Origin: Minisyncoccia bacterium | GTDB taxonomy: Bacteria; Patescibacteriota; Minisyncoccia; Phycocordibacterales; UBA9973 | Assembly (NCBI GenBank): GCA_049287045.1 | Contig: JBAQFC010000001.1 | Coordinates: 67,309-131,308, forward strand | DNA length: 64,000 nt | Reading direction: 5' to 3' | Part shown: piece after piece, positions 32,405 to 63,801 of the stretch | Layout of the letters: each line of letters opens with the position of its first letter | Numbering within the stretch: position 1 is the first letter of the stretch | Made by a program: the position numbers and the translations under genes | Notes under the pieces: generated by a model | Database searches by the model: none | The model's input: the letters and a program-made list of their open reading frames with translations, nothing else | Told to the model about the DNA's origin: nothing

Positions 32405-32431
32405 TTCGGCAAGCTCACTATAAATAAATTT

Positions 32432-33430
32432 ATGTTAAACCCAGAATTAAAATTAAACTCAAAACTTTTTGCTCTAGACGTTGAGCAAGTTCCAATTCGT
32501 AAAGGATTCGGTCAGGGACTTTTGGCTGCAGGTGAGTTGGATAAAAATATTGTCGGTCTTTGTGCAGATTTGACCGAGAGTACTCAGATGAATTTATTCG
32601 CAGAAAAATTTCCAGAAAGATTTATAGAGATAGGAGTTGCCGAACAAAATCTAGCAGCTGTCGCTTCGGGTATGGCAGCGATGGGCAAGATCCCTTTTAT
32701 TTCTTCGTACGCTATGTTTTCTCCAGGTAGAAACTGGGAGCAGATCCGTACTACTATTTGTTATAACAATCGACCGGTCAAAATTGCGGGATCTCATGCT
32801 GGAGTTTCTGTTGGTCCTGACGGTGGCACGCATCAAGCTATCGAGGATATTGCCATCACTCGTGTTATTCCCAATATGCATGTTATATCTCCTTGTGATG
32901 CAATAGAAGCAAAGAAAGCTACATTGGCATTGGCCAAGACAACCTTTCCTACTTATTTACGATTGGTTCGTGAAAAGACTCCAATCATCACTACCGAAGA
33001 AACTCCATATGAGGCAGGTAAAGCACAAATTTATTGGATGCCTGATATTGGTTTGGCTCAGGTTGGAATAGTTGCCACAGGCGCACTTCTTTATAAAGCA
33101 CTATTGGCAGCGAAAGAATTGGAAGCTGAAGGGATAAAAGTAAAAGTTATGAATTTGTCTTCGATTAAGCCGATTGATGCTGAGGCTCTGACAATTTTAG
33201 CTAAAGAAACAAAAGCAATCGTGACAGTTGAAGAACACCAGATAGCTGGGGGAATGGGTTCTGCTGTAGCAGAAGTTCTAGCCCAAAATTATCCTGTGCC
33301 GATAGAATTCGTTGGTGTACATGATAGATTTGGTCAGTCGGGTACTCCAGAAGAACTCATAGAGCACTATGGTATGGGTAAAGATTCTATTAAAGAGGCG
33401 GTGAAGAAAGTTTTAAAGAGAAAAATTTAG
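32432..33430 (+). CDS. Transketolase, C-terminal (pyrimidine-binding) subunit
   Basis: GVAEQNLAAVASGMA...SSYAMF and a C-terminal TKC domain. Confidence 0.9.
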   Translation: MLNPELKLNSKLFALDVEQVPIRKGFGQGLLAAGELDKNIVGLCADLTESTQMNLFAEKFPERFIEIGVAEQNLAAVASGMAAMGKIPFISSYAMFSPGRNWEQIRTTICYNNRPVKIAGSHAGVSVGPDGGTHQAIEDIAITRVIPNMHVISPCDAIEAKKATLALAKTTFPTYLRLVREKTPIITTEETPYEAGKAQIYWMPDIGLAQVGIVATGALLYKALLAAKELEAEGIKVKVMNLSSIKPIDAEALTILAKETKAIVTVEEHQIAGGMGSAVAEVLAQNYPVPIEFVGVHDRFGQSGTPEELIEHYGMGKDSIKEAVKKVLKRKI

Positions 33431-39200: not shown

Positions 39201-40658
39201 TTATTTATAGTACAACATACTTGGGTCTTTAAGATGAAATGAAATTGAAAATGGAATATCTGCTTTTTGTTCCAGGTTTGTAATAGGTAAATCTACCTCA
39301 GTAAAATATGTAGATGCTTGAAATGATTTTTTGAATTGATTAAGAGTATCACGATTTTTGGCAGTACCGGTTACAAACATCATATCACTTAATGATGGTG
39401 CTCCAAAACTCGATATTGTGATTCCTGGAATAACGCGAGAATTGATTTCGTCAATCAAGATACTCCAGTTGGGTGTGTTGGACAAAATAGATTGAGAGAC
39501 AAGGGTCAGAGAATTTACTTTTTTTATCAAGGATTCTTTTTGGATTATATCTGACGTAACAGGGAATGTAGAAAGAATAGAACTTTCATTTTGAATTATT
39601 TGTGATACTGAAAAAATATAAAGATAAGCTGCAATAAAAGTAAACAAAAAGAATAAAGATACTACTATCAACAAGTTGCGAGTAAGTTTTGTGAATGTTT
39701 TTATATTGTGGTATTTGTAAGTTTCGGCAATCCCAACAGGTAGTAAACTTATTTGATCGTCTTGTCCTTGTGAGATTTCTCCACGCACTACCGCACCGAC
39801 AGGGATGAGCCATTTGGATTGTGGTTCCAAGTTGGAAATATTTTCCAAATATTTTAAGAATTTGTCTCTGATTGTTGTTTCTGTAAAAGAAACTTCATGA
39901 ATTGTTTCTTTGAGTTCAGATTCGAGTGAATTCTTTATTTTGTTTGTCTCATCTTTCAAGAAATTTTCTTCTTTAATAAAGAGAGCTGGAAGCGTTCTGG
40001 AAAATTGAAGAATATTATCTTTCACTGTAAAGATGGTCACGCTGTCCTGATTCTTTTTTGTTAACAAACTCAATTCTCCTGGTTGTAGTTTTGCTGATCG
40101 AGCAATACTTGCGATATGAGATTCAAGAGCAAAAGTATTCACCCCGGCTTCTTCCAGAGTTTTGATATAGTCGTCTGCGATATTTTTAGGAATCGTAGAA
40201 ACGAGAACTTTGTTGGTATCACCAGAACCATCTGTATCCTCCCATCCTATATACACAGTGTCTCTCTTAAAAGGGAGTTGGAAATCAATCGCGAGGTCTA
40301 TTGCTTCTTCTAGATGTAAATTAGTGATAGTTTTAGGGAAAGGAAAAATATGAGAATAAATTTTGTCTTCTGGTATGGAAATAACAGCATAACTTCCGTA
40401 AAGTTTTTCTCTTTTCCAGATGTCCTTTATAGTTTTTTTGAAAAGTTCTTTATCTACTATCGCCCCATTTGATATTATATTTTCAGGTATTGATTCTTCT
40501 ATTAGAATAAGTTCGTTTTCTAAATTATCGGTAATACTTTTTAATATTTGTTTTGTTGCTTTTTTCTTTGGACGGAAATAAGCAATGCGTATATTTAAGT
40601 CGCTGATTTCAACTCCAGTAAAATACTTTTTCTTTGTTAGAAGATTTAAAATGTTCAC
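39201..40658 (-). CDS. PilM-like actin-fold domain fused to a TM plus PilN-like periplasmic region
   Basis: 485 aa. The N-terminal 320 aa are cytoplasmic (..FTGVEISDLNIRIAYF..), followed by a single TM (LLIVVSLFFLFTFIAAYLYIF) and a periplasmic tail. Confidence 0.45.
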   Translation of the reverse strand: MNILNLLTKKKYFTGVEISDLNIRIAYFRPKKKATKQILKSITDNLENELILIEESIPENIISNGAIVDKELFKKTIKDIWKREKLYGSYAVISIPEDKIYSHIFPFPKTITNLHLEEAIDLAIDFQLPFKRDTVYIGWEDTDGSGDTNKVLVSTIPKNIADDYIKTLEEAGVNTFALESHIASIARSAKLQPGELSLLTKKNQDSVTIFTVKDNILQFSRTLPALFIKEENFLKDETNKIKNSLESELKETIHEVSFTETTIRDKFLKYLENISNLEPQSKWLIPVGAVVRGEISQGQDDQISLLPVGIAETYKYHNIKTFTKLTRNLLIVVSLFFLFTFIAAYLYIFSVSQIIQNESSILSTFPVTSDIIQKESLIKKVNSLTLVSQSILSNTPNWSILIDEINSRVIPGITISSFGAPSLSDMMFVTGTAKNRDTLNQFKKSFQASTYFTEVDLPITNLEQKADIPFSISFHLKDPSMLYYK

Positions 40659-40896
40659 GATGTTTTTATTATATCAAGTTTTATATTTTGATGCTATATA
40701 ATTTTTTTTGATTCTGCATTTTCCCCTGTCCCCGGTTTAGGGGATTTCCCCTAAACCGGGTATCGGGGAAAGTGTCAGAGATACTACAAGTTATCCACTA
40801 TTAGGTTTACTTATTTGTTTTTTAAAAAAACTTCTGATATAATTTAGGCATAAAGGTTTTAATAGATTATTAATTTTATTTAAAAGTATAAATTTT

Positions 40897-41622
40897 ATGA
40901 ATATGAATTTTGTGAAGAAAAATAAAAATCGTGGTTTCACTTTGCTTGAGCTCTTGATCGTTATCGCGATCATCGCTATTTTGTCTGTTGCACTTGTTCT
41001 AGTTTTGAACCCAGCAGAAACTTTAAAGAAGGCTCGAGATGCTCAGCGTATCTCTGACCTTGCTACACTTAAAACTGCGATAGGACTTTATTTGACGAGT
41101 GTCTCCCCAGCATACTTGGGTGGAGTGGCTGATAACAATTTCTGTAAACCTACTCCAGCAACTGCATGGGGCGACGGTTCGTTCACATACAAGATTTCTT
41201 ACTCGACTCCTATTGCCGTCCCAATCACTGATGCAGTCGAAGATGGTAGTACTGGTGTTATCAAAAGACAAGCAGCTGTGAATCCAAGTCTTACAGATGG
41301 TACTGGTTGGATTCCTGTTAAGTTTGATAACATTACAGGAGGATCTCCAATTTCAAACATTCCTCTTGATCCAACAAACAATATCGTAAGCACTTTGAGT
41401 ACTGCTGCTTCTGTAAGAAGTGATGCTCTAGTCTATCGTTATGCATGTGCAATAACTCCACTTACTTTTGAAATCGATGCTCAACTAGAAAGTGATGCTT
41501 ATACTGTTACTGACGACAAAAGAGCAAGTGATGGTGGAAATAGTACACTTTATTATGAAGTTGGTACAAGTCTATCAATCATGACTGCTGCTTCTCCTTC
41601 TGCAGTTGGAACAGATATCTAA
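40897..41622 (+). CDS. Type IV pilin, paralogue 1
   Basis: Prepilin leader KNRG|FTLLELLIVIAIIAILS, with Glu at +5. Confidence 0.8.
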   Translation: MNMNFVKKNKNRGFTLLELLIVIAIIAILSVALVLVLNPAETLKKARDAQRISDLATLKTAIGLYLTSVSPAYLGGVADNNFCKPTPATAWGDGSFTYKISYSTPIAVPITDAVEDGSTGVIKRQAAVNPSLTDGTGWIPVKFDNITGGSPISNIPLDPTNNIVSTLSTAASVRSDALVYRYACAITPLTFEIDAQLESDAYTVTDDKRASDGGNSTLYYEVGTSLSIMTAASPSAVGTDI

Positions 41623-41643
41623 TCATTTAGCTAATAAAATAAA

Positions 41644-41676
41644 AACACCTCGGTTTTACACTGAGGTGTTTTTATT
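41644..41676 (+). terminator. Rho-independent terminator
   Basis: ACACCTCGG..CTGAGGTGT followed by TTTTTATTTT. Confidence 0.7.
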
Positions 41677-41768
41677 TTATTAGATTTGTCTCAAAAATAC
41701 TTGCTTGTTTTTTTTATATTTAGTAAAATTATATAAGCTATTATTATTTTATAAAAAACTATATATTT

Positions 41769-42449
41769 ATGAATATGAATTTTGTGAAGAAAAATAAAAA
41801 TCGTGGTTTCACTTTGCTTGAGCTTTTGATCGTTATCGCGATCATCGCTATTTTGTCTGTCGCACTCGTTCTAGTTTTGAACCCTGCAGAAACTTTGAAG
41901 AAGGCCCGAGATGCTCAGCGTATTTCTGACCTTAATACAATCAAAACTGCAATCGGACTTTATATGACGACAGTAGCACCGGTGTATTTAGGAGGAACAT
42001 CCTCCAACGCCGAATGTCAGGCTGTGACAGGTACTTGGGCAGGTACAAACAAGATTTTTTATTCTCTTCCTGTTGCTAGTGTTATTACTGACGTGGTATT
42101 GGATGGTGTTGGTGGTGCTCTAAAATTGCAGGTTGCAACTCCAAGTCTTACAGACAGTACTGGTTGGATTCCTGTTGATTTCGGTAATATTGCCGGAGGT
42201 TCTCCTATCTCAAAAATTCCTGTTGATCCAATCAACACTATTACTGCTCTAGGTGCAGTTGCAAGTACAGATCTAGTATATCGTTATGGATGTGCTCAAT
42301 CCCCATTAGCTTTCGAGATTGATGCTCAATTAGAAAGTATCGCTTACACTGTTACTACTGATATGAGAGCGACTGATGGTGGTAATAATGCAGGTGTATA
42401 TGAAGATGGTACTGACTTGTTGATATTTGGAACAGGCGCAGACTTCTAA
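41769..42449 (+). CDS. Type IV pilin, paralogue 2
   Basis: The first 60 aa are nearly identical to paralogue 1, and the C-terminal globular part diverges. Confidence 0.8.
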   Translation: MNMNFVKKNKNRGFTLLELLIVIAIIAILSVALVLVLNPAETLKKARDAQRISDLNTIKTAIGLYMTTVAPVYLGGTSSNAECQAVTGTWAGTNKIFYSLPVASVITDVVLDGVGGALKLQVATPSLTDSTGWIPVDFGNIAGGSPISKIPVDPINTITALGAVASTDLVYRYGCAQSPLAFEIDAQLESIAYTVTTDMRATDGGNNAGVYEDGTDLLIFGTGADF

Positions 42450-42471
42450 TTTTACTCAACTTTTTATTAAA

Positions 42472-42507
42472 AAATACCTCGGCTTTACGCTGAGGTATTT
42501 TTTTTAT
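42472..42507 (+). terminator. Rho-independent terminator, a homologue of the one at 41644
   Basis: AATACCTCGG..CTGAGGTATT followed by TTTTTTTT. Confidence 0.7.
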
Positions 42508-42520
42508 ATAATAGTTTACT

Positions 42521-43159
42521 ATGATACTAAATTTTATATTTTCACATTTAAATACGATTGCTTTAGGGGTATGGGTGGCATTTTTGGTGGTTATTGCTAT
42601 TCGTTTTTTCCGACCAGCTTGGTTGAGAAATATTTCTTATTCAAAACTTATTTTAGTTGCTATAGGATTAAATATTTTTTATGGTTTGTTTGTGAGTTGG
42701 GGACAATATCATGTATGGGCATCAGCCAATGATTTTACCAGATCACTTGTAAATTTACCTTTACCAAAAGAGGTGCCAATGTCTTATCTTTTTGAATGGA
42801 CAAGACCATTATTTCAGAATCATTTAGGATATTTCCTGTATTATATTATAGGACGTGTTTGGTTAAATATTTTCGTCTCATTTTTAATTTCAGGAGCAGT
42901 TTATCTTCTATTTAGAATTTGGAATTCTTACCGTGGTGGTTTTATAGAAAAAGGTCCTGAATTATTATTAATTTTGATGTTGATTTCTGGTTTTCCAGAT
43001 ATTATGATTTTAATTCCTCTTGGTTTTATTTTTGCAATTTTTTTGTTTACTTTTTACTATTTTAAAAAGGGTCACAAGAATGTAGAAATTGAACCAGCTT
43101 TTATTTTTGCAACTCTTTTCGCTTTATTATTTACAAATATTATTTTGAGTTTGATTTAG
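42521..43159 (+). CDS. Polytopic membrane protein of unknown function in the pilus locus
   Basis: 212 aa with about 6 TM helices. Confidence 0.4.
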   Translation: MILNFIFSHLNTIALGVWVAFLVVIAIRFFRPAWLRNISYSKLILVAIGLNIFYGLFVSWGQYHVWASANDFTRSLVNLPLPKEVPMSYLFEWTRPLFQNHLGYFLYYIIGRVWLNIFVSFLISGAVYLLFRIWNSYRGGFIEKGPELLLILMLISGFPDIMILIPLGFIFAIFLFTFYYFKKGHKNVEIEPAFIFATLFALLFTNIILSLI

Positions 43160-43176
43160 TAAAAGATGCCACTTGA

Positions 43177-43221
43177 CCCACATGTCCGACATGTGGGATC
43201 CCCACATGTCGGACATGTGGG
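43177..43221. repeat. Two tandem copies of the 21-nt palindromic repeat CCCACATGTC(C/G)GACATGTGGG immediately upstream of the pilB promoter
   Basis: Copies at 43177-43197 and 43201-43221, separated by 3 nt. Same family as 19465-19485. Confidence 0.75.
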
Positions 43222-43272
43222 TTTATGAAGGTTTGTCTTTTATATTTTGCTGTAAATTGGTATAATCTCTTC

Positions 43273-44982
43273 ATGCACATAAGCGAAGAAAAATTAAAGT
43301 CGATTTTACTTGAATCGGGTCTCGTCACTGATGACGATTTTAATTTAGCTCGCGAAGAATCTAAAAGAAGTGGTCAGACCATTTCTGATGTTTTGATCGG
43401 TAATGAAAAAATTACCGAAGATTACCTTGTAGAACTTTTAGCTCCATATTATGGTGTTCCGATTATCAATCTTAAAAAAGAACAGATTGATCCTGCTGCT
43501 TTGGAGTTGATTCCGGAAGTTTATGCAAAATCAAAGAACGTAATAATGTTTGGTTATGATAAAGAAAAGGGGATAATAAAGCTGGCAATGCTTGATCCTC
43601 TTGATTACGATACTATTGAATACATCCGAATAAAATTCAACGCTTGGGTGGAAGCATACCTGACGACTTACTCAAGTTTGCGTTATGGTTTTAGACAATA
43701 TAAACAAAAAATAAATGTAGGCTTCGAACAACTTATTTCAGAAAACATAGAACAGTCTCTTTCTCTTGCCAATGAAAAAGATTTATCAAAGACAGCGACT
43801 GCTGTCCCTATCGTCACTATTCTAGATAATATTATCGAGCAAGCAATAGCCTTGAATTCTTCTGATATTCACTTTGAGCCACTTGAAAATGCTCTTCTTG
43901 TTCGTTTTCGTATTGATGGTGTTATGTCAGAAATTTTAAGTTTGCCCCAAGCGATAGCTTCGATCCTCGTCGCTCGTGTAAAGATTCTCGGCAATCTGCA
44001 GATTGATGAACACCGCGCTCCTCAAGACGGACGTTTTAGTTTCAAAATGCAAGATGGCACAAACATCGATGTTCGCGTGAATATCATGCCTATTTTTCAT
44101 GGTGAAAAAGTTGAAATGAGATTACTAAAAAGTTCTATTCGCCCGCTCTCTTTAAAAGATCTTGGTTTTTCAGATATTGCGAGTAGAGTTCTCGGTGAAG
44201 AAATCAAAAAACCTCACGGAATGATTCTTGTGACTGGACCGACTGGTCACGGTAAGACTACGACTCTTTACGCAATATTACATATTTTAAATACACCTTT
44301 GGTGAACATTACGACGATTGAAGACCCTATCGAGTACGAGTTTCCAAGAGTAAATCAAACACAAGTAAATACAAAAACAGGAATCACTTTTGCAAACGGT
44401 CTGAGGTCTCTTCTTCGTCAAAATCCAGACATAATCATGATCGGAGAGATACGTGACAATGAAACAGTTGAGATTGCGGTTCAGGCTGCCTTGACGGGTC
44501 ACCTTGTTTTATCTTCACTCCATACCAATGATGCTCCGTCTGCTATTCCTCGTCTGCTCGACATGAAGGCTCCAGCCTTTTTACTTTCTTCCACTATCAA
44601 TGCGATCATCGCCCAGCGTCTTGTCAGAAAAATCTGCACACAATGTATCGGATCATATGAGATAACACCTGAAATAAATATTACCATAAGAGAACAGGTC
44701 AAAATTTCTGGAGGTGATGAAAAAAATATACCCAAGACTCTTTATAAAGGACGCGGTTGTAATGTTTGTGGAAATTCAGGATATTTTGGACAAATAGGAA
44801 TCTTTGAAGTTATGGTTATAACCGAAGGTATTCGTGAGATGATTATCGCTGGCGCAGAAGTATCAACATTGAGAAAGACAGCCATTGCCAATGGTATGAT
44901 TTCTATGTTTATGGATGGTTTGGATAAAGTTGAAAAGGGGATTACAACAATAGAAGAAATTACTCGTGTGGTTAATGAATAA
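43273..44982 (+). CDS. pilB: Type IV pilus assembly ATPase PilB (GspE family). The ORF opens at 43225.
   Basis: T2SSE N-domain, then Walker A GPTGHGKTT, a Walker B region and the C-terminal tetracysteine motif CTQC...CNVC. An extended -10 TGGTATAAT lies at 43258-43266. Confidence 0.9.
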   Translation: MHISEEKLKSILLESGLVTDDDFNLAREESKRSGQTISDVLIGNEKITEDYLVELLAPYYGVPIINLKKEQIDPAALELIPEVYAKSKNVIMFGYDKEKGIIKLAMLDPLDYDTIEYIRIKFNAWVEAYLTTYSSLRYGFRQYKQKINVGFEQLISENIEQSLSLANEKDLSKTATAVPIVTILDNIIEQAIALNSSDIHFEPLENALLVRFRIDGVMSEILSLPQAIASILVARVKILGNLQIDEHRAPQDGRFSFKMQDGTNIDVRVNIMPIFHGEKVEMRLLKSSIRPLSLKDLGFSDIASRVLGEEIKKPHGMILVTGPTGHGKTTTLYAILHILNTPLVNITTIEDPIEYEFPRVNQTQVNTKTGITFANGLRSLLRQNPDIIMIGEIRDNETVEIAVQAALTGHLVLSSLHTNDAPSAIPRLLDMKAPAFLLSSTINAIIAQRLVRKICTQCIGSYEITPEINITIREQVKISGGDEKNIPKTLYKGRGCNVCGNSGYFGQIGIFEVMVITEGIREMIIAGAEVSTLRKTAIANGMISMFMDGLDKVEKGITTIEEITRVVNE

Positions 44983-45023
44983 CCACATATCGGACATGAG
45001 GGAATCTCATGTCCGATATGTGG
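44983..45023. repeat. 41-nt perfect palindrome CCACATATCGGACATGAG-GGAAT-CTCATGTCCGATATGTGG, a variant of the CCCACATGTCSGACATGTGGG family
   Basis: It starts 1 nt after the pilB stop codon. Its half-sites resemble the 21-nt repeat. Confidence 0.7.
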
Positions 45024-45053
45024 ACGACGTGTTATTAATGAATAATAATTTTT

Positions 45054-46262
45054 ATGATATATACATACAAAGCATACAATAAAGATAATAAAATAATAGA
45101 TGGAGAATATGAAGCATCTTCCAACCAAGAAGTCGTAGAATATTTGGCTAAAATTTCTCTAACACCGGTCTCTGTTCATGCGATAAGTACAAGCAAAAAA
45201 ATTCTATCAATCGAACTATTTGACAGCATCACATCTATTGATATTGTTTTTCTAATACGTAACCTGGCGACCACAATCAAAGCGGGATTATCTATTGTTG
45301 AATCCATTGATATCTTGATCAAAGATACCAAAAAAAATTCAATGAGAAAAATCCTTCAAGGGGTCAAAGCCAAGATTGAAAACGGACAGACTCTTTCTTC
45401 TGGTTTTGAAGCTTACAAAGAATCTTTTCCACCGATTTTTATCGGTATGGTAAAAGCTGGTGAGGTCTCCGGTCAGCTTGGTAAATCTTTGTCAGAACTC
45501 GCTCGTTATCTTTCAAAAGAATATACACTTCGAAGTAAAATAAAATCAGCTCTTACTTATCCGATTATTCTTCTTATTGCTTCAGCTTTGGTTGTGACAT
45601 TGATGTTGGTTTTCGTTCTTCCAAAGCTTACTCAATCATTTGCTCAAAGTGGAGTGACACTACCTTGGATTACCAAAGCTTTTCTTTTTGTTTCTCAGAT
45701 GCTTACCTATAGTTTTATTTTGGACTTGGTTGTTCTCGGAGCGATAGTATTTTTCTTTACTTATTTCCGTAAGACAGCGACAGGAAAAAAGTTTTTCTTT
45801 TTTGTTACTTCACATACACCAGTCGCAAAGGATTTGATAAAGAAGATAGCTGTTGTTCGTTTTGCTCATACCTTTGGTAATCTGATAGGTAGTGGTCTGT
45901 CTGTTGTTGAATCTCTTTCAATCTCTTCACAGTCGATAAACAACCAGAGTTATACTGATGCGATTGATAAATCAATCGAGGATATCAAAAATGGTATCTC
46001 TGTTTCAGAAGCGCTTAGTAAATATCCGAAACTTTTCCCCAGTCTTTTGATAAGTCTTATTATGGTTGGTGAGCGTACTGGATCCCTCCAGGAAATTCTT
46101 ATGACTTTTGCAGATTTTTATGAAGAAGAAGTTGATAATACATTAAAAGAATTGACTGCAGTCTTGGAACCTGTTTTGCTTATCATTATGGGTCTGATGA
46201 TTGGTGCTATTGCTGTATCGATAATCCTTCCTATTTATCAATTAGTCGGACACTTTATTTAA
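45054..46262 (+). CDS. pilC: Type IV pilus inner-membrane platform protein PilC (GspF family)
   Basis: 402 aa with two T2SSF repeats and three TM segments. Confidence 0.85.
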   Translation: MIYTYKAYNKDNKIIDGEYEASSNQEVVEYLAKISLTPVSVHAISTSKKILSIELFDSITSIDIVFLIRNLATTIKAGLSIVESIDILIKDTKKNSMRKILQGVKAKIENGQTLSSGFEAYKESFPPIFIGMVKAGEVSGQLGKSLSELARYLSKEYTLRSKIKSALTYPIILLIASALVVTLMLVFVLPKLTQSFAQSGVTLPWITKAFLFVSQMLTYSFILDLVVLGAIVFFFTYFRKTATGKKFFFFVTSHTPVAKDLIKKIAVVRFAHTFGNLIGSGLSVVESLSISSQSINNQSYTDAIDKSIEDIKNGISVSEALSKYPKLFPSLLISLIMVGERTGSLQEILMTFADFYEEEVDNTLKELTAVLEPVLLIIMGLMIGAIAVSIILPIYQLVGHFI

Positions 46263-46263
46263 T

Positions 46264-47574
46264 ATGAAGTACTTCCGTGGCCGTCATGTCCTGAGCTTGT
46301 CGAAGGGTTTCACGATGCTTGAATTGTTGATCACTACCGCAATAGTGGTGACAGTAGCTTCAGCAGGTATTGGTTTTTATATAAATTATGGCAAGAGTGT
46401 CGACCTAAATTCTGTTGTTCAAATTTTAGCTTCTGATTTAAAACAAGCACAATCGAGATCTATGATAGGTGAGGGAGGTTTCAAATGGGGAGTGCATCTA
46501 GTGAATGGAACAAAAGATTATTATGAAATATTTTCTACCCCGGATGTTTATAGTAATGGTGCAAAAGTTATCCTCTCAACAACCTATCTATCCAGTGGTG
46601 TTACTTTTTCCAGTCCATCATCCGGTACGTCTTCGGATATTATTTTTAATAAAATATCAGGAGGAACAACTCCGTCTTTTGTTGGATTAACTTCAGGTAG
46701 TATTACTGAAAGAATCGGTCTTTCAAGTATTGGAAGTATTGAAATTGCTGAGGTTGCAATTAAAACGTTGATTGTCGCAGGCGGCGGTGGTGGCGGTGGT
46801 AATTGTAATTCTTGTGGTGGTGCAGGCGGCGGTGGTGCCGGTGGTTTGGTTTATGTACCATCGCTTGTTGTCACAAGTGGTTCAATGTCAGTCCTTGTTG
46901 GTGCAGGAGGTGCGGGTGGTGCCAATAATACCAATGGCTCATCGGCCAATGGAGTTGCTGGAACAAATTCATCATTTGGTGGTTATATTGCAACGGGTGG
47001 CGGAGGTGGCCGACCACAGAGTGGTGTCGCGGGTGGCAATGGAGGTTCTGGTGGTGGAGGCTCAGGTGGTGGTAGTCCTGTTGCTGGTGCTGGTGGTCTT
47101 GGTATATTTGGACAAGGAAATAATGGTGGTGCAGGTATTAGTTCACCTCATGGCGGAGGCGGCGGCGGAGGTGCTGGTGGCCCAGGCAGTACAGGTAGTA
47201 CGAAAGCTGGTGGTATTGGTCTTTCTTATTCTCTTAGTGGTTCAAGTATTTATTATGCTGGCGGCGGTGGTGGTGGTACATACACTTCAGGTACTGGAGG
47301 TACAGGGGGATTGGGTGGTGGTGGTAATGGTGTAAATAGTACTACTAACAATGGTTATGGTTTTTCTGGAACAGTGAATACTGGCGGTGGTGGCGGGGGA
47401 GCCAATGGAGCGCCCGTTGGTGGAGGTGGAGGAACTGGTGGTTCAGGAATAGTCATAATTAGTTACTCGACAGCTTCTGGTATAACAGCTACCGGTGGTA
47501 CAATAACTACAGTCGGTGCAAACACAGTTCACACATTTACTTCAAGCGGGACTTTTATTGTCACAGTACCGTAG
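46264..47574 (+). CDS. Pilin-like protein with a prepilin N-terminus and a 250-aa glycine-rich low-complexity domain
   Basis: KGFTMLELLITTAIVV prepilin signal, then a GGGGGGGNCNSCGGAGGGGAGG...-type region encoded by (GGT/GGC)n, and a short C-terminal beta-rich tail. Confidence 0.55.
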   Translation: MKYFRGRHVLSLSKGFTMLELLITTAIVVTVASAGIGFYINYGKSVDLNSVVQILASDLKQAQSRSMIGEGGFKWGVHLVNGTKDYYEIFSTPDVYSNGAKVILSTTYLSSGVTFSSPSSGTSSDIIFNKISGGTTPSFVGLTSGSITERIGLSSIGSIEIAEVAIKTLIVAGGGGGGGNCNSCGGAGGGGAGGLVYVPSLVVTSGSMSVLVGAGGAGGANNTNGSSANGVAGTNSSFGGYIATGGGGGRPQSGVAGGNGGSGGGGSGGGSPVAGAGGLGIFGQGNNGGAGISSPHGGGGGGGAGGPGSTGSTKAGGIGLSYSLSGSSIYYAGGGGGGTYTSGTGGTGGLGGGGNGVNSTTNNGYGFSGTVNTGGGGGGANGAPVGGGGGTGGSGIVIISYSTASGITATGGTITTVGANTVHTFTSSGTFIVTVP

Positions 47575-47580
47575 AATTTT

Positions 47581-47621
47581 GACCAGTGCTTTAGGCGCTC
47601 GGAGCGCCTAAAGCACTGGTC
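47581..47621. repeat. 41-nt perfect palindrome GACCAGTGCTTTAGGCGCTC-G-GAGCGCCTAAAGCACTGGTC (REP-like, with no U-run)
   Basis: Perfect 20-bp arms. It shares the 12-mer CCAGTGCTTTAG with the hairpin cluster at 63766-63786. Confidence 0.7.
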
Positions 47622-47640
47622 TAGTCCATACTAAATTTTC

Positions 47641-48315
47641 ATGAAAAATTTTTTCAAAAATAAAAAAATATCTTTAAACAAAGGAGCACTCTTGCTCGAA
47701 CTTTTGATTGTTATTTCATTGCTCGCGGTGATTCTTTCTTTCGGAATCAATGCGATGTTTTTGAGTTTAAAAAGTAACAGAGTCTCTGGTGAACGCGACA
47801 TTGCGAATGCATTGGCGACAGAATCCTTGGAAGCAGTGAGAGCGACAGTCGAAGAAAATTGGCAAAATATTTATGCTCCCTCTGGAATAGTAAAAGGAAC
47901 CACACATTATTACCCAAAACAATCTCTAGGAAAGTGGGTCCTTACTACCGTATCAGGAGACGGAGTTATCACCATCGGTGGTGTTGTTTTTACCAGATAT
48001 GTCATCATCGATGATGTGTGTCGAGACAACTCAACTCGTGAAGTGACAGGTGTCACACCTTGTACTATTCCGAGTACTCAATCAGATGATCCGAGTACAC
48101 AGAGAGTCTCATCAATAGTGTCTTGGCCAGGTGCAGATCCAGTCACAATGTACGAATATTTTTTTCGTTGGAAAAATAAAGTATGTACTCAAGGCGGATG
48201 GGTTGCAGGAGTACCAGGAAATTCTACGCAAGATTGCACCGGTGCTGGCACCAATTATGATTCAAAAGAAGACACAGTTTTTATCGATCCAAATGGTTCA
48301 TTTAAGCTTCAGTAA
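47641..48315 (+). CDS. Minor pilin or pseudopilin
   Basis: Prepilin motif KG|ALLLELLIVISLL with Glu at +5. Confidence 0.6.
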   Translation: MKNFFKNKKISLNKGALLLELLIVISLLAVILSFGINAMFLSLKSNRVSGERDIANALATESLEAVRATVEENWQNIYAPSGIVKGTTHYYPKQSLGKWVLTTVSGDGVITIGGVVFTRYVIIDDVCRDNSTREVTGVTPCTIPSTQSDDPSTQRVSSIVSWPGADPVTMYEYFFRWKNKVCTQGGWVAGVPGNSTQDCTGAGTNYDSKEDTVFIDPNGSFKLQ

Positions 48316-48347: not shown

Positions 48348-48587
48348 ATGTGGTATGATAAAGTTATGAAAAATATTCTTCAATTTTCAATTTCAAAAGG
48401 GGAAAATAATTACATAGCGCAAGCTGTTGGTTTTCCTATTTTTACTCAAGCAGAAAGTTTAGATCAGCTTATTGAAAATATAAAAGAAGCTACGGGTTTA
48501 CATTTCAAAGATGAGGATTTATCTGAATACGGATTTGTTCCTAAGCCATCTTTATTGATAAATTTCGAGGTTCCTCAGTATGCCTAA
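48348..48587 (+). CDS. hicB: HicB-family antitoxin (UPF0150-like)
   Basis: 79 aa; ...YIAQAVGFPIFTQAESLDQLIENIKEATGLHF... RNase-H-like fold pattern. It overlaps hicA by 8 nt. Confidence 0.55.
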   Translation: MWYDKVMKNILQFSISKGENNYIAQAVGFPIFTQAESLDQLIENIKEATGLHFKDEDLSEYGFVPKPSLLINFEVPQYA

Positions 48588-48822
48588 GTTGAAAGTTTTA
48601 TCTGGAAAAGATTTAATTGATATTTTTGCTTCTTTTGGTTTTCATATTATTGGTCAAACTGGCAGTCATGTAAAAATGCGCTGCCATAAAGATAACAATA
48701 AACAAACACTCACCATACCTCTACATAAAGAAATCGATAAAGGTCTTTTGAAAGCAATTTTTAATCAAGGTTCTATGTATATTTCAGAACAAGAGTTAAA
48801 GAAATATTTCTTTACAGAATAA
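48580..48822 (+). CDS. hicA: HicA-family mRNA interferase toxin
   Basis: 80 aa; KVLSGKDLIDIFASFGF...GSHVKM....TIPLHKEIDKGLLKAI. Confidence 0.65.
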   Translation: MPKLKVLSGKDLIDIFASFGFHIIGQTGSHVKMRCHKDNNKQTLTIPLHKEIDKGLLKAIFNQGSMYISEQELKKYFFTE

Positions 48823-49041: not shown

Positions 49042-52000
49042 ATGAAAAAAATTATAAAAAAAATAAATTTAAGTCGGTTTAATTTATTCTTGGTAGTTCT
49101 ACTTCTTGGAGTAGTTTCTTTTTCATTCGTGAAACTTGTTTTTGCATCCACTCCGGATACCACTAAACCGAATCCTGGACAAGCATGGAATGAGATCGGC
49201 AACGGAAGTTTTCAGATCAGCGGACCTACTGGTGGACCCACAGTTCCCAAAACTTTTATTTTTCCTGATGTTGATAATACTTATGTCATCACTGCACCGA
49301 CTCCGGTTGGAACAACAGGACAAGTTCTTACTTCCACAGGAGCTCTCGGTCAACAATCCTGGGCGACACCAACTTTCGGTAATGTCAATGGTACTGGTAC
49401 GACAAATTTTATAACCAAGTGGAACGATGCTGTCGGTACTTTAGTAAATTCTTTAATTTTTGATAATGGAACAAATGTCGGTATCGGAACAACAGCACCA
49501 GCTACACCTTTTCAAGTTGGACAAAGTGGTACAAATAAAAATTCAAGATTTTGGGGGAACATAGATGTAAATGGAGGAGGTTCATTAACTTTTGGATCTG
49601 GAGATTCTTCTATCGGATATCCTTCTGGTTATAATTTGGCTTTCAATACTTACAACGGAAGTCTGACCGAAAAAATGAGAATCACGTCCGTTGGTAATGT
49701 TGGTATTGGAACCACGAATCCATCAATGTCACTAGATGTAAAAGGTTCAGGTGCTGGACACGTTATAATGGGTAGTTGGGCTTCAAATGGAGCTTACGGA
49801 GTACTTAGTCTGAATGGTTTAAATGATACAGGTTCCAATTTTTATAGTGCAGCAGGAGGTCCTCTTTATATTAATCGTCCAACAGGACAAGGTCTATATT
49901 TTAGAGAAAATAATGCTGATCAAATGACCATTCTAAATGGTGGCAATGTTGGTATTGGAACAGTAACTCCAGGAGCAAAATTGGACGTAGAAAATCTTTC
50001 TGCTGGAATCAACGAAGGGATTCGATTATCTCATGCAAATGCTTATGATGCAGGATCCAAGATTTCTTGGTGGATGGATAATGCTTCAGAAAGTGCAAAT
50101 ATCAAAAGTGCATGGTATCCGACTCCTACATCGAAATCGTATATTGCACTCTCTACCTATGGCCCGTCATTACTTGAGAGAATGAGAATAAATGGTGATG
50201 GTAATGTCGGTATTGGATCAACAGCACCAAACGAAAAGCTGGATGTTAAATCCGGTAATATTTCTATTTCTGATTCTGCTGGAAACGAACGCGGAAGATT
50301 TTGGAGTACAGATACAGGTGGTTCACCTTATGAAACAGGATTACAAACAAGTAATTATCACCTTGTGTTAGATGCTTCCGGTTCTGGACAAAATAATATT
50401 ATTATGCGAACAGGTTCAAGTACTGTTGGTACTGGTACTGAAAAATTAAGAATTACAGGTGCAGGTCTTGTCGGTATTGGAACATCAGCTCCTGCACAGC
50501 TTCTTCAAGTTGGTAGTGCGACTTCAACAGCCAATCAGTATTCAAGAATTGATTCCGCGGCAGCATATGATGCAGGATTAGAACTCGCATCTGCTGGTGC
50601 ATCAAAATGGACTATTTACAGACCAGGAGGTACAAATGATTTGAGGTTTTATGATGCTACTGCTACTGCAGGAGATAGGCTAACTATAAAAGCAAGCACT
50701 GGTAACGTCGGCATAGGCACCACAGCACCCACTGCAAAATTAGAACTCGGAGGTACGTCAGGTGTAGACGGTTTGAAATTCCCTGACGGAACTCTTCAGG
50801 TTACCGGAGCTTCTAGTGGAGTCAAATTACTTTCGAGTGGTACTGGCCTGACAATCAACGGAAATTCTGTAACGAGAACTGCAGTTAATGCTTGGGATGC
50901 TGAAGTATATAGTCAAGACGGTTATTCTGGTGGAGCCTATGCGTCTTATGTAGTTCGCAATCTGACTGGTGTTTATTATATGGTTGGTTTGAATACAGAC
51001 CCGACTTTAAATCCTAGTTACACTAGTATAGATTATGCTTGGTATGTGCTCAATAGTACAAGTGCTTCGATTTATGAAAGTGGTACCAACATTGCTCCTG
51101 CAATCACTACTATCGCTGTAGGTGATGTGCTTGCTGTGACTTATGATGGATCAAATATCAGATATCTCCAAAACGGAGTCGTAAAAAGAACAGTGCCGGT
51201 CATTATAACTCTTCCTCTTTATTTAGATTCTTCTTTCCACAGTGGAGCTGCGACACCGGATATTAGCAATATTCAATTCGGACCTATGAGTACTGGTTCT
51301 CAATGGGCTGCAAACGGAACAAGTATTTATTACAACGGTGGTAATGTTGGAATTGGAGTTACTGCACCAAGCAATAAATTAGAAATCAGTGGAGGAGATC
51401 TTATGGTTAACGGAGCTGGAGCTTCAAAAAGCCTATACTTAAATTATGATAAGACTAGCTTTCCAAATTATGCGAGTTCATTAACTCAAACAGGTGCTGC
51501 TGATGTTTCAGGTACGCGTGGACTTGTAATAAATGCTAACAGTGGTCAAGCAGTAACAAATTATGGTATTGGTTTTGCGATTGATGGGGCTAATAAAATG
51601 TTCCTCCAAGGAAGTAGCGGCAATGTCGGTATTGGTACTACAGCACCAACATCTAAATTAGAGGTATCAGCTGGAAATATTCAAATGAGTGATGGGTATC
51701 CAGTAACTTGGGGTGATACAGTCACACCTAGAGGTCAAATAGTTACTTTTTCAGCTTCTCCTGATAGAGGCTTAAGATACACTGCACAACCAGGAGGTGT
51801 TGGATGGTTTGGAGTTCACGATTTTTATGCGGCTGACGGAGTTGCTGGAACTACACCTACATTGGCAATGAGAATAAAAGATGGCAAAGTCGGCATTGGA
51901 ACGTCGGCACCGGTTGGCAAACTTAATGTAGTCGCTGCTTCTTCTAATGTATCACAGTCTGGGCAAGCTATCGGTTTTGGAAGTACGGCAGTTCCATCTG

Positions 52001-55000
52001 GTGTAACAATGGGTTGGAATGATAATAATTACGGATGGCTCCAGTCATGGAGCAGTACGCCACTCTATGTTAATGCGTTAGGAAATGATGTCATATTCAA
52101 TAGAGATAGTGGCAAAGTCGGTATTGGAAACACTGCACCATCCGAAAAGCTCGATGTCACAGGCAATGTTGAATTCTCAGGTGCTTTGATGCCAAACAAT
52201 CTTCCAGGATCTTCTGGTCAATTTTTGACCTCTGGTGGTGCTGGAGTTGCTCCAACATGGATTGCTGGTGTGACAGGAAGTGGCACGACCAATTATGTTA
52301 CAAAATGGACACCAAACGGTACCACTCTTGGTAATTCTTTGATTTTTGATAATGGTACAAATGTCGGTATCGGTACAACAACACCAGGAGCACAACTAGA
52401 AGTAAAGGGAAACGGAACCGCCAAAATATTAATTGGAGATATGAGCTATTCTAATTATGCTGGAATTTCATTAACTGGATTAACAACTGCTGGGAATTAC
52501 ACGTTATTAACGAGAGCTGCGGACCCTGATTTGTATATCAACAGACCATCTGGTTATGCAATGCAGTTTTCAGAAGCAAACGGTGTTCCTCAGATGTTTA
52601 TTAAAACCGGTGGTAACGTCGGTATTGGAACAACAGTACCAACTCAAAAATTAACCGTGAATGGTGCGATTACTCAAGGAACCAACGGAGCTTCTTGGAC
52701 TTTAGATACTTCCGTCGTTGCAAACGATTGGACAATGATTGGTTCCTCTGACTCTGTTACTCAGAGATATTTACACTTTGGTTATAGAGCAGCTGATGCA
52801 ATAGGAGGTGCATACACTGATAGTGCAAAAATAAACTTCTACACAGGAGGAGCTATTCTTGGAATCAACGGTGGTAAAGTTGGTGTTGGTGTAGCATTAC
52901 CTACAGCCAAGTTCCAAGTCGGAACATCTTCTTCTTCTGCGGGTGTAGATGTGTCAGTTATAGGTTCATTTGGAGGTAGTGTTGTAGGATCAGCTTATCC
53001 TCTAACTGTTTCAAATACTGCTGCTATAACCGTAGGAAATAAAGCATTGATGACGTATGTCATGGGACCTGCTTGGTCTTCTACTGCTTATGCTGGTGCA
53101 TATCTTGAAAACGTAGATGCGTCTACCTCATATGTTATTGGAACTTATCGTCCTTCTGATTCTCTAGCAGAAAGAATGAGAGTCACATCCAATGGAAATG
53201 TCGGAATTGGAAATACAGCACCACTTAATAAACTTACCGTAACAGCTTCCACTATGCCTACTGGACAAGGTGCATTTTCTGCATCAAACACTTCAACTTC
53301 TGGAACTCAATATGGTCTTGCTGGTACAGCAACTGGTGCTAGTACGACAAATGTTGCTGGTTACTTTAGTGCCTCAGGTGCGACAAACAATTATGGTTTA
53401 ATTGTTAATAGTGGTCTTGTTGGTATTGGTACACAAACACCATCTTTTCCTTTGGAAATTGTCAAAGCTGCACCTCTTGGTACACAATTGGCTTTAACTC
53501 AATCTGCTGGAAATACAACAGGATTGTTGGCATGGACTGGTGGATCTTTTTATATACAAACAGGTTCGAAATATGATTCGTCTGCTGCTTGGGTTAGTAC
53601 CAACGGCACAACAGTCGGTAACCAAGGGTATTCTTATTTCGGTCAAGACGGGTCTGTTTCACTCGGTATGGTTTCTAGTGCTCTTACTGGTACTACTATT
53701 TCTTCATGGAGAACTTCTCCATTTCAGTTGACTGCTGCAGGCAATCTAGGTCTTGGTGGTATTACTCCAACAGTTGCACTTGAAGTTTTAGGTAGTACCA
53801 CAAACAGTTCTGTAAAAGTTCGTGGAATAGAAATACAAGGTTATGCAGTGAACAATGAATGGATAGGTGAAAATATTTATTATAGTGGAGGATGGAAATA
53901 TCGAGCTAACGGTTTTGGAAATCAGATATATTTCGGTGGTAGTGCTACCGGCGATATTTCATTTTACACTGCGCCAAATAATGTCGGTGGTGCAGGTGCA
54001 GCTGCTACTCTTACAAATCGTTTTACAATTACTCCTGGTGGCAGTATCGGTATAGGTACAACAAACCCAGGTGCAGCCCTAGAAGTAAATGGTCAAGTGA
54101 AAATCACCGGAGGTACTCCAGGTGCTGGCGAAGTTCTTACTTCAGATGCAGTTGGTTTAGCTACATGGGTTCTTCCCGTAGCATCAGTCACAGGTACAGG
54201 TACACAAAATTATGTAACTAAATGGAATAATGCAGGAGGTACTGCTATTGGTAACTCTTTGGTTTTTGATAATGGAACAAATGTTGGTATAGGTACAACA
54301 GCACCAGGATATAAATTAGATGTTTCAACAACTGGACCTGGTGGAATGCATGTTGCTACAAACACTTCTACTGCTGCTAATCCATCATTTTATTTGACAG
54401 ATGCAGCTGCGAGTTATTCTGATTTTGAAATTTATTCTGATGCTACTAATGTTAAATTAGGACCTTATCTTGATAAGGGTATTCAGTTTGTTGGTAATGC
54501 CGGAACTGAAACAAAAATGACAATTGATAGCTCAGGCAACGTAGGTATAGGCACAACAGCAGCAACACTACTAGATGTAAAAGGTGCTTCACCTATAATC
54601 CAGGTACAAGATAATGCCGCAGGTTATGCTATCACTCGTTACCGAGCTGGTGGTTCTGGAGTAAGTGATGCTTATTTTGGAGTTGATGCTGGAGTCGTGG
54701 GTTTGATTACTGGTGGCGGAGGAATTCCTTATGCTGCTGTTATCTCTCGTCAGGGCGCATACCCAGTGCAATTTGGAACAAACAACCTTGCTCGAATGAC
54801 GATAAGTAGTGCTGGACTTGTTGGTATTGGATTAACAAACCCAACAGCTCCTCTAGAAATAAACGATAGTACATGGACCACTGCTTCTGTCCGACCAACT
54901 GTTTTGAAACTAGGTTCTTATACTGATGCTGCAAACGAAGGTCCATTTATAGACTTCACTTCACGATGGACTGGTCTTTATCAGGATTGGGTTGTAGGAC

Positions 55001-63679: not shown

Positions 63680-63801
63680 CCCAGCCAGCGCCTAAGGCGC
63701 TGGCTAAACAATACTAATCCCTTAAACTTAAAAAAGTTTAAGGGATTTTTTATTTCATCTTTACAGCCAGTGCTTTAGACTCTGGCCGGCGCTGGCTGGG
63801 G
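63680..63801. repeat. Cluster of REP-like hairpins between the FG-GAP gene and the second transposase, including one canonical terminator
   Basis: Hairpin AGCCAGCGCC-TAA-GGCGCTGGCT (63683-63705); terminator TCCCTTAAACTT-AAAA-AAGTTTAAGGGA followed by TTTTTT (63716-63752); GCCAG-N11-CTGGC (63766-63786); and GGCGCTGGCTGGG (63788-63800), which is complementary to 63680-63692. Confidence 0.65.

Follow-up and report, generated by a model that had tools for sequence, protein, structure and literature searches.

A modular type IV pilin with a Gly_rich_2 domain as putative surface-binding cargo in a CPR bacterium

The gene and its operon

The gene considered here is a complete coding sequence in the window (the whole 64-kb stretch of DNA that was analyzed), where it lies among genes for type IV pilus (T4P) machinery. 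The features that make up this setting are as follows.

39201..40658, minus strand: PilM/PilN-like fusion protein
40897..42449, plus strand: two tandem paralogous pilins of 241 and 226 aa, with strong N_methyl motifs
43225..44982, plus strand: pilB-like assembly ATPase (T2SSE plus MshEN)
45054..46262, plus strand: pilC-like platform protein (T2SSF), adjoining the modular pilin upstream
46264..47574, plus strand: modular pilin, complete CDS of 436 aa plus stop, ATG start
46772..47335, plus strand: alternative-frame ORF of 187 aa, Val/Ala-rich, with GGN codons read out of frame
47581..47621, plus strand: hairpin with a perfect 19-bp stem and a 3-nt loop, 7 nt past the stop codon
47641..48315, plus strand: downstream pilin-like ORF of 224 aa (...NKG ahead of the predicted mature start, then ALLLELLIV), weak ComGE match

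The modular-pilin ORF agrees exactly in position, strand, length and start codon with that given in the preliminary description of this DNA. Its start codon lies 1 nt past the pilC stop, and this spacing suggests that translation of the modular pilin may be coupled to that of pilC. The earlier view of the product as a prepilin-type protein with a pilin module and a large Gly-rich extension is supported, and its gene is set inside a T4P operon, in which genes for PilM/N, two pilins, PilB, PilC, the modular pilin and a further pilin-like protein are found together. The 241- and 226-aa tandem pilins are candidates for the major pilins. A counterpart of the 224-aa ORF, of about 216 aa, comes after the pilin in related CPR clusters, and at two CPR loci (L030 and L031) the conserved order is PilM, pilin, 211-aa protein, PilB, PilC, 154-aa pilin and 216-aa protein. 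The hairpin downstream of the modular pilin (dG -38.7 kcal/mol, z = -9.0) is terminator-like, without a T-run. Related GC-rich hairpins were also seen after another gene, at 63681-63782.

The possibility had been raised that the Gly-rich tract of the gene is an assembly error. The tract is genuine, as JBAQNP010000028.1, a contig of a Candidatus Moraniibacteriota MAG, reproduces the ORF base for base and, over the 2293 bp corresponding to window positions 45947-48239, differs by 1 mismatch and 0 indels. The overlapping ORF at 46772-47335 had been described as an antisense frame artefact. It is indeed a frame artefact, in the form of a Val/Ala-rich read-through of GGN codons, but it lies on the plus strand in another frame and is not antisense.

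Leader, pilin module and Gly-rich domain

The modular pilin is made up of a leader (residues 1-15), a pilin module (16-162) and a Gly_rich_2 domain (163-436). These parts, together with two segments of the Gly-rich domain discussed below, map to the window as follows.

46264..46308, plus strand: class III signal (prepilin) leader, residues 1-15, MKYFRGRHVLSLSKG (from the sequence and TIGR02532)
46309..46749, plus strand: pilin module, residues 16-162, alpha1 helix then an 8-strand beta-sheet (from homologues, synteny and AF2)
46750..47571, plus strand: Gly_rich_2 (PF21722) domain with C-terminal beta motif, residues 163-436 (from Pfam, phrog_2295, AF2 and Foldseek)
46801..47439, plus strand: allelic 'core cassette', residues 180-392 (213 aa), defined against sister strain L001
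47440..47571, plus strand: C-terminal beta-strand motif (SGIVIISY...ATGGTITTxGxxTVHTFTSSGTF), residues 393-436 (from family-wide conservation)

The N-terminus reads MKYFRGRHVLSLSKG followed by FTMLELLITTAIVV, with Gly at -1, Glu at +5 and then a hydrophobic stretch. This is the layout of a class III signal, in which a short hydrophilic leader running to Gly leads into a hydrophobic stretch of about 20 residues and Glu occupies +5 (MKYFRGRHVLSLSKG, then FTMLELLITTAIVVTVASAG), and cleavage is predicted between G15 and F16. The claim of a prepilin N-terminus was borne out by TIGR02532, which scored 20.9 and so above its cut-off of 16.3; the Pfam N_methyl score of 17.8 was under the gathering cut-off of 21.2. 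The motif F(S/T)LLE directly after the cleavage-site Gly is common to 40+ homologues of the pilin module. We infer that the modular pilin is processed by PilD and incorporated in a pilus. No Peptidase_A24 protein (prepilin peptidase, PilD) was found among the roughly 50 ORFs scanned in the 64-kb window. A 212-aa polytopic membrane protein (42521-43159) that is conserved in the pilus cluster was considered as a divergent A24 peptidase; Pfam and the PDB gave no match to it and a 47-sequence alignment showed no invariant Asp, on which grounds it was rejected as a canonical A24 enzyme.

What had been described as a pilin-like region of about 150 aa is a complete pilin module. Its homologues (n=48, 45-68% identity) are nearly all 145-170 aa long and end where residue 162 of the modular pilin aligns, and the module is orthologous to stand-alone CPR pilins of ~154 aa that are encoded straight after pilC. 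A profile of the module matched PilA (9laa) in the PDB at E=5e-10. When the pilin module and the Gly-rich module were modelled separately with AF2, the former gave a pLDDT of 90, with a helix at 18-68 and 8 strands; the model is a 'lollipop' fold, with a long alpha1 helix on a beta-sheet. The best Foldseek match of the pilin module was E. coli GspH (2knq; prob 0.99, E=0.058, TMt 0.54, identity 12%), and the NCBIfam models for ComGD (21 bits, cut-off 70) and GspH (13.6 bits, cut-off 80) matched weakly over the N-terminal ~55 residues. On these weak matches, the modular pilin is probably a minor pilin, GspH-like in type. The same pilin module was found with another cargo, DUF1566, in a relative (P0140).

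The linker between the pilin module and the 274-residue Gly_rich_2 domain is about 5 residues long. Residues 166-401 matched positions 17-225 of the 226-position Pfam Gly_rich_2 model (PF21722) with E=6.7e-20 and 72.5 bits (cut-off 24.3), and phrog_2295 matched the domain with E=2e-54. The Gly-dominated tract noted earlier is thus a real feature: Gly makes up 43% (101/236) of residues 166-401 vs 11.5% of residues 1-165, with nine runs of >=4 Gly in the Gly-rich part, the longest of up to 7. Approximately 13 Gly-rich motifs are separated by variable loops, and per-column conservation in 120 homologues was 90-100% in the Gly motifs and 10-40% in the loops, which contain indel hot spots. Almost all of the invariant positions in the family alignment are Gly, and some non-Gly positions are also conserved. 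The domain therefore displays the alternation of Gly motifs and hypervariable segments that is typical of S16 gp38 and Pam3 gp24. The short beta-rich C-terminal tail was likewise present as described and is kept across the family; in phage proteins the same motif is also found separating tandem copies of the domain.

AF2 modelling of residues 160-436 yielded a compact fold with pLDDT >93, in which DSSP placed ~16% of residues 172-395 in helix or strand and ~84% in neither. The top Foldseek matches of the Gly-rich domain in the PDB were Bxb1 tail-tip chains (9D93; E=1e-4, TMt 0.41), followed by the Pam3 fiber protein gp24 (7YPX; E=0.019, TMt 0.37) and then by weak matches to ALK glycine-rich domains (E>1). 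Foldseek probabilities for the Bxb1 chains and Pam3 gp24 were 0.96-1.0; the fold similarity, at TM 0.37-0.41 and an rmsd of about 10 A, is modest, and S16 gp38 (6F45) was absent among the matches. No sequence relative of the Gly-rich part was found in the PDB, matches in the profile search being limited to lectin domains that occur as partners in homologues. [quoted passage not shown] The predicted packing of the Gly motifs of the modular pilin is most likely a polyglycine-II/PPII-type lattice.

The Gly_rich_2 family is large (one search gave 3606 homologues, another 10,943 cluster representatives) and is abundant in phages. The BFVD returned 97 matches of the domain at E<=1e-3, and at the viral loci inspected the Gly_rich_2 ORFs adjoin tail-fiber or tail genes; tblastn of the domain against GenBank phages gave nothing at 1e-5, probably as a result of low-complexity masking. 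A homology search for prepilin plus Gly-rich architectures, as proposed in the preliminary description, found that the combination recurs in other lineages: independent pilin-Gly_rich_2 fusions with unrelated pilin modules account for 6 of the best 120 matches and for 3/145 representatives. In giant proteins many Gly_rich_2 copies stand in tandem, and there the domain could be merely structural. Our literature search found neither a tested function for any PF21722 member nor a paper mentioning PF21722 or a pilin bearing Gly_rich_2.

Variation in the Gly-rich core

The tract had been thought to be built of GGT/GGC repeat DNA and, for this reason, to be prone to slipped-strand length variation. 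The tract is not made of such repeats: TRF reported only arrays of 2-5 copies with scores of 30-52 (none above 52), no perfect repeat was longer than (GGT)4 or a 9-mer x2, and Gly is encoded by a mixture of codons (GGT 74, GGA 26, GGC 22, GGG 3). Length variation by slippage is therefore unlikely, given that no tandem repeat exceeds (GGT)4 and that two assemblies of the same allele show 0 indels. A long perfect tandem tract inside the gene, of the kind that marks a contingency locus, is not present. What did vary between strains is the core, which is replaced in its entirety rather than changed in length by slippage.

The strain comparison involves two alleles, that of the window and that of sister strain L001, the latter from a 2.7-kb short-read contig. 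L001 retains the same in-frame pilin-Gly_rich_2 architecture, and its DNA is ~94% identical over pilC, over the segment for the pilin module and over that for the C-terminal tail. At the protein level the N part (97.8%) and the C part (97.7%) are nearly identical, whereas the core is 47.8% identical with 27 gap columns, and either core has closer relatives among unrelated family members than in the other strain. As judged from these two sequences, the difference between the strains points to cassette replacement.

Potential sources of the replaced segment were also sought. A six-frame search of the 64-kb window with the domain HMM returned this gene only, and hence no other Gly_rich_2 copies or silent donors; scanning of metagenome contigs with the pilin module for further alleles gave one 60%-identical locus only. 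Diversification of the DGR type was rejected, as the differences between the alleles include indels and involve every residue type rather than A-specific substitutions, and no reverse transcriptase was present among the window ORFs scanned. A close phage donor was likewise rejected: viral contigs gave only relatives that are 50-73% identical over short segments, and the viral-contig scans provided no evidence for a recent phage-to-pilin transfer.

A working model and its relation to known systems

With moderate confidence, we favor the possibility that this gene of a CPR bacterium (Candidatus Moraniibacteriota) encodes a modular type IV pilin whose folded Gly_rich_2 cargo serves in surface binding and whose core has been diversified by replacement. 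It is most likely a pilus-borne adhesin and a further case of the known 'modular pilin' design. We infer the adhesin function, with the extra module as a putative direct mediator of adhesion, by analogy from the tail-fiber context of the domain and from the precedents discussed below. According to this working model, a normally stand-alone pilin of ~154 aa would have acquired a C-terminal Gly_rich_2 domain in which a small beta-sheet base bears the ~13 motifs, a design like that of receptor-binding phage fiber domains. The following steps are envisaged: (i) the prepilin peptidase would take off the leader; (ii) the PilB/PilC machine would place the subunit in the pilus via the alpha1 helix, probably as a low-abundance minor pilin of the GspH/FimU class near the tip; (iii) the Gly-rich module, once displayed, would attach to a ligand on a surface, plausibly that of the host bacterium of this presumed episymbiont and (iv) recombination would diversify specificity by replacing core 180-392, which is bounded by the conserved first (VAGGGGGGG) and last (GGSGIVII) motifs.

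The explanation offered in the preliminary description was that the Gly-rich region forms a flexible polyglycine tip or sheath, the length of which varies by slipped-strand mispairing of GGT/GGC repeats. The high Gly content, the Gly runs and the small amount of helix or strand assigned by DSSP fit this idea, but we consider it largely refuted and highly improbable. Our reasoning that the Gly-rich part is not floppy polyglycine is that it belongs to a conserved domain family (PF21722) of fixed length, with invariant Gly and further conserved non-Gly positions, that its model has a pLDDT >93 and that its structural matches are folded phage Gly-rich lattices; slippage is opposed by the limit of (GGT)4, the mixed codons and the lack of indels between the two assemblies. 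Mis-assembly of the fusion or of the tract, or mis-joining of two genes, is scarcely credible. GGN-rich DNA can confuse assemblers and a related entry (P0018) resembles a chimeric PilB-Gly_rich_2 call; nevertheless, an independent assembly is identical across 2293 bp bar 1 SNP, the in-frame architecture is seen again in a second strain and recurs in other lineages.

It is also conceivable, though unlikely, that the modular pilin is a major or body-located subunit, in which case many or all pilus subunits would carry the Gly-rich domain and the filament as a whole would be thick and decorated, in place of a tip adhesin. Consistent with this, co-translation with pilC, which the gene directly follows, is probable, no pilin of the cluster is better conserved across CPR than the pilin module, and the authors of the modular-pilin survey do not exclude body locations (PMC8179133). 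However, the upstream tandem pilins with their strong N_methyl motifs are better major-pilin candidates, the best matches of the module are minor pilins of the GspH/ComGD type, and a 274-aa domain attached almost without a linker would be difficult to accommodate on each subunit. Major pilins are, moreover, usually more variable than this pilin module, which we also count against a major-subunit role. A distinctly unlikely scenario is that the protein is no pilus subunit at all and that its prepilin-like N-terminus is a membrane anchor or export signal for a surface Gly-rich protein, with a role, for example, in envelope structure or in ice or surface binding like that of PPII-bundle antifreeze proteins. 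Most Gly_rich_2 proteins are indeed non-pilin and have ordinary signal peptides or lectin partners (e.g. P0002), the ORFs scanned in the 64-kb window included no PilD and at least one pilin-Gly_rich_2 gene elsewhere lies outside a tight T4P cluster. Against this, the N-terminal 162 residues form a complete pilin fold that is the orthologue of a syntenic pilin, and the gene is inside a pilB-pilC-pilin operon.

Partner recognition and attachment in CPR/Patescibacteria are largely unknown, and the best leads are type IV pili and minor pilins with C-terminal domains (PMC12206443). The favored model, a pilus-borne adhesin with diversified cargo, would add a conserved pilC-adjacent pilin that acts as a carrier of different cargo, Gly_rich_2 here and DUF1566 in a relative. 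Fusion to a pilin and strain-level replacement of the core point to a surface-binding role for PF21722 (>10,000 clusters); if true, this would be the first functional handle on the family and would suggest a receptor-binding toolkit shared by phages and episymbionts. More tentatively, and with considerable doubt on our part, the Gly-rich module may be the partner-recognition determinant of an episymbiotic CPR bacterium, a pilus-borne receptor-binding domain of the phage polyglycine-lattice type whose specificity-determining core is swapped between strains, and possibly with phages, in the manner of tail-fiber tips, the swapping of which changes phage host range. In that event ultrasmall bacteria and phages would share a pool of receptor-binding modules for the same hosts. 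If our inference is wrong, the gene is one more among hundreds of modular-pilin architectures.

With regard to known families, the GspH/FimU/ComGD minor (pseudo)pilins are a candidate class for the protein, the best structural match of its pilin module being E. coli GspH, but its NCBIfam scores are far under the family cut-offs. Its cargo is a clear member of PF21722 / PHROG 2295 ('glycine-rich domain-containing protein'). Unlike the modular pilin, the majority of PF21722 members belong to phages or are secreted, and in them the domain is often paired with ConA-like lectin (PF13385), He_PIG, FN3 or collagen or is arrayed in tandem in giant proteins; only a few per cent have a prepilin N-terminus. 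The phage Gly-rich lattices are comparable in number of Gly motifs (~13 here, 12 in Pam3 gp24, 10 in S16 gp38), in their variable segments and in their beta-sheet base; in contrast to Pam3 gp24, S16 gp38 and the Bxb1 chains, with which there is no detectable sequence homology, the domain here sits on a pilin and not on a fiber. The pattern of variation recalls Neisseria PilE and the host-range cassettes of tail fibers, where the N-terminus and the far C-terminal end stay constant and recombination replaces the exposed interior wholesale. It differs in that the 64-kb window holds no silent donors and in that the variation is between strains only, across two alleles.

There is precedent for modular pilins acting as adhesins, namely PilB (vWA) and PilC (lectin) of Streptococcus sanguinis, and the survey of Raynaud et al. 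2021 already includes CPR examples (PMC8179133). In common with those modular pilins, the present protein has a class III signal peptide, a small pilin module, a very short linker and a bulky C-terminal signature module, its gene lies in a T4P locus and ligand binding by the filament is the proposed role (PMC8179133). It combines a complete pilin module with a domain, PF21722, that is found mostly in non-pilin and phage proteins. Points of difference are that Gly_rich_2 is not named as a cargo in the parts of the survey drawn on here (PMC8179133), that the host is a Moranbacteria-type CPR bacterium and that the core of the cargo is allelic between strains. A precedent from within CPR is the minor pilin PilX2 of TM7x (Nanosynbacter lyticus), which has a C-terminal beta-propeller and is required for host binding (PMC12206443). 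The cargo fold and CPR lineage are not the same in the two cases, and PilX2 has genetic evidence for its role, whereas the attachment role of the present protein is a proposed one; the feature that they would have in common is a CPR minor pilin with an extra C-terminal domain implicated in the attachment of an episymbiont to its host (PMC12206443).

The pilC-adjacent pilin and its surroundings

The 436-aa ORF at 46264-47574 (+) is as the preliminary description had it, and its start codon lies one base 3' of the stop codon of the T2SSF/PilC gene. The prepilin N-terminus, also borne out, consists of MKYFRGRHVLSLSKG followed directly by FTMLELLITTAIVV, with Gly at -1, Glu at +5 and a hydrophobic stretch; it scores above the TIGR02532 cut-off (20.9 bits vs 16.3) and slightly under that of Pfam N_methyl (17.8 vs 21.2). 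No A24 peptidase was found within the 64-kb window, and we infer that the pilin is processed by PilD.

The N-terminal part of the protein is a complete pilin. With residues 1-171 as query we recovered 48 homologues (45-68% identity), nearly all of them stand-alone CPR pilins of 145-170 aa, and these terminate where residue 162 of the window protein aligns. A related CPR genome has its genes in the order PilM(-), pilin, 211-aa membrane protein, PilB, PilC, 154-aa pilin and 216-aa protein, and the window agrees with it over 39201-48315, the 436-aa protein standing in place of the 154-aa pilin. Given the matching gene order and the homologue ends, the window gene is an orthologue of the conserved pilC-adjacent pilin, extended by 274 residues. 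The profile of the pilin module matches solved type IV pilins (PilA 9laa, E=5e-10), and its AlphaFold2 model has the alpha1-helix and beta-sheet of a classic pilin (pLDDT 90). Structurally the module comes closest to GspH, a minor pseudopilin (prob 0.99, E=0.058, TMt 0.54), with which the weak ComGD/GspH matches are in line; this is a hint, not proof, of minor-pilin status. In one homologue of the module, P0140, it is a DUF1566 domain that follows at this junction, and the pilC-adjacent pilin thus serves as a carrier of differing cargos.

The source organism is a Parcubacteria-group CPR bacterium. Other features of the window are as follows.

13022-15094 (+): single 690-aa ORF uniting the N and C domains of enolase with the barrel domain of pyruvate kinase; two enzymes that act consecutively in glycolysis are apparently fused
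22397-23065 (-): IS200-like Y1 transposase ORF amid an otherwise housekeeping region
31511-33430 (+): transketolase in two adjoining ORFs, one N-terminal TPP-binding, the other pyrimidine-binding and C-terminal
40897-41622 and 41769-42449 (+): two paralogous pilins in tandem, 241 and 226 aa long, identical over the first ~55 residues and divergent in their C-terminal halves; candidate major pilins or alternative alleles
42521-43159 (+): 212-aa polytopic membrane protein between these pilins and pilB
47581-47621: hairpin after the pilin stop, with a perfect, GC-rich 19-bp stem (dG -38.7, z -9) and no T-run
48348-48822 (+): small two-gene pair separating the pilus genes from the giant ORF; the downstream member (48580-48822) is of the HicA toxin family (Pfam), and the upstream 79-aa ORF, for which no family match was found, is presumed to be its HicB-like antitoxin partner
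49042-61602 (+): giant 4186-aa ORF immediately 3' of the pilus cluster, with a Sec-type signal, numerous GNVGIGT-type repeats and, near the C-terminus, a Peptidase_S74 domain (a phage tail-fibre/endosialidase intramolecular chaperone); a second phage-fibre-like element beside the pilin
61753-63675 (+): 640-aa protein with FG-GAP repeats, seven in all, and at the C-terminus a Por_Secre_tail (T9SS sorting) domain, unexpected for a CPR bacterium
63681-63782: GCGCCTAAxG-type hairpins after the FG-GAP gene at the window end, akin to that at 47581-47621, with which they may form a family of terminator or REP-like elements

The 212-aa protein is one of a family conserved in CPR, with 69 homologues at 41-98% identity, and keeps its place in the T4P clusters of other CPR. 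It had no Pfam or PDB match, and with no invariant Asp in the family it is not a canonical prepilin peptidase.

The Gly_rich_2 domain

Gly makes up 43% of residues 166-401 vs 11.5% of residues 1-165, in keeping with the Gly dominance originally reported. The tract had been taken for flexible polyglycine, a reading that is unsupported: residues 166-401 are Pfam Gly_rich_2 (PF21722, E=6.7e-20), the domain also matches phrog_2295 (E=2e-54), and AlphaFold2 modelled residues 160-436 compactly at pLDDT >93. On this model the Gly-rich part is folded, and the domain is widespread. A word-indexed search gave 3606 family matches and there are 10,943 cluster representatives at E<=1e-3, many members having tandem copies within giant proteins. 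Across 120 aligned sequences nearly all invariant columns are Gly; they fall in ~13 motifs, interspersed with indel-rich, weakly conserved loops. The beta-rich C-terminal tail noted earlier is present and, as the family-wide motif ATGGTITTxGxYTIHTFTSSGTFTV, belongs to the fold. DSSP assigned only ~16% of residues 172-395 of the model to helix or strand; high pLDDT with so little of either is the pattern expected from polyglycine-II/PPII bundles, and the Gly motifs would accordingly have PGII geometry.

No sequence-level relative of the domain was found among solved structures. In a Foldseek search of the PDB the best matches were to Bxb1 tail-tip chains (E=1e-4, TMt 0.41), followed by gp24 of the Pam3 tail fibre (E=0.019, TMt 0.37); the ALK glycine-rich domain scored lower again (E>1). 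With such modest TM-scores, the predicted likeness goes no further than fold class. In Pam3 gp24, 12 Gly-rich motifs form a lattice whose distal tip is hypervariable and is the proposed receptor binder; the protein is similar to S16 gp38 and the ALK domain (PMC9608196). PPII helical bundles are described in Pam3 and in Bxb1 gp33 and gp29 (PMC13243192). Among predicted viral structures Foldseek gave 97 matches at E<=1e-3 ('glycine-rich domain-containing proteins'). Their sources are uncultured tailed phages, cyanophages, one Pelagibacter and one haloarchaeal phage, and a prasinovirus; some of the matches carry collagen-repeat, ConA-like lectin or FN3 annotations. On viral contigs L002, L033, L034, L035/L036 and L041, Gly_rich_2 ORFs adjoin ORFs matching tail-fibre, tail or baseplate PHROGs; by guilt by association, these neighbourhoods consistently indicate host-recognition apparatus.

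Prepilin-Gly_rich_2 fusions on unrelated pilin modules were present in 6 of the 120 best matches and 3 of 145 representatives (one has two Gly_rich_2 copies and one adjoins a second Gly_rich_2 gene); the architecture thus arose several times. We found no description of it in the literature searched. A 697-aa database protein, P0018, joins the N-terminal two-thirds of a PilB-type ATPase in frame with Gly_rich_2; a chimeric assembly or a deletion is the probable cause, though the protein hints at Gly_rich_2 pilin genes near pilB in another organism too.

Two alleles of the core

The Gly-rich tract is not an assembly artefact, since the independently assembled contig L016 (JBAQNP010000028.1, a Candidatus Moraniibacteriota MAG) reproduces window 45947-48239 with one SNP and 0 indels. 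That SNP (position 47168, G to T) changes Gly302, invariant across the 120-sequence alignment, to Val; it is a rare variant or else an error of sequencing.

The closest relative, P0001, is on contig L001 from a different sample. DNA identity to L001 is ~94% from the end of pilB, across pilC and the pilin module, to ~46800, drops to ~50-55%, with indels, between ~46800 and ~47437, and resumes at ~94% to the stop codon.

Protein identity, window vs L001
Residues 1-179: 97.8%
Core (residues 180-392): 47.8%
Core without Gly-Gly columns: 24% (37/154)
C-terminal 43 residues: 97.7%

Each core resembles Gly_rich_2 domains from unrelated proteins more closely than it does the other allele's core (window core, 68% to P0002 and 61% to P0005; L001 core, 56% to P0019). 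Judged from these sequences, two alleles only and L001 a short-read contig, the core was replaced as a cassette, with the first and last motifs conserved on either side, and did not diverge by in-situ drift or slippage. Slipped-strand variation had been proposed on the view that the tract is repeat DNA, and finds no support: the DNA is not repeat-like, TRF arrays have 2-5 copies only, and no perfect repeat is longer than (GGT)4 and a 9-mer present twice. The ORF at 46772-47335, formerly called antisense, is actually an alternative frame of the same strand. No donor copy of the core was found in the window, nor any closer relative among phages or metagenomes.

A probable modular pilin

On the best-supported reading the 436-aa protein is a modular pilin as Raynaud et al. 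use the term (PMC8179133). The pilin carrier would be joined via ~5 residues to a folded Gly_rich_2 domain, and the protein would be incorporated at some place within the pilus, which would then display the domain, most likely as an adhesin that binds a ligand. On this reading the locus adds a new member to a known class of modular pilins, with a phage-associated glycine-rich domain of PF21722 as cargo, and the strain-level core swap is its most interesting extra. There is genetic precedent in CPR for a minor pilin with an extra C-terminal domain: PilX2 of TM7x, which has such a domain, is required for host binding (PMC12206443).
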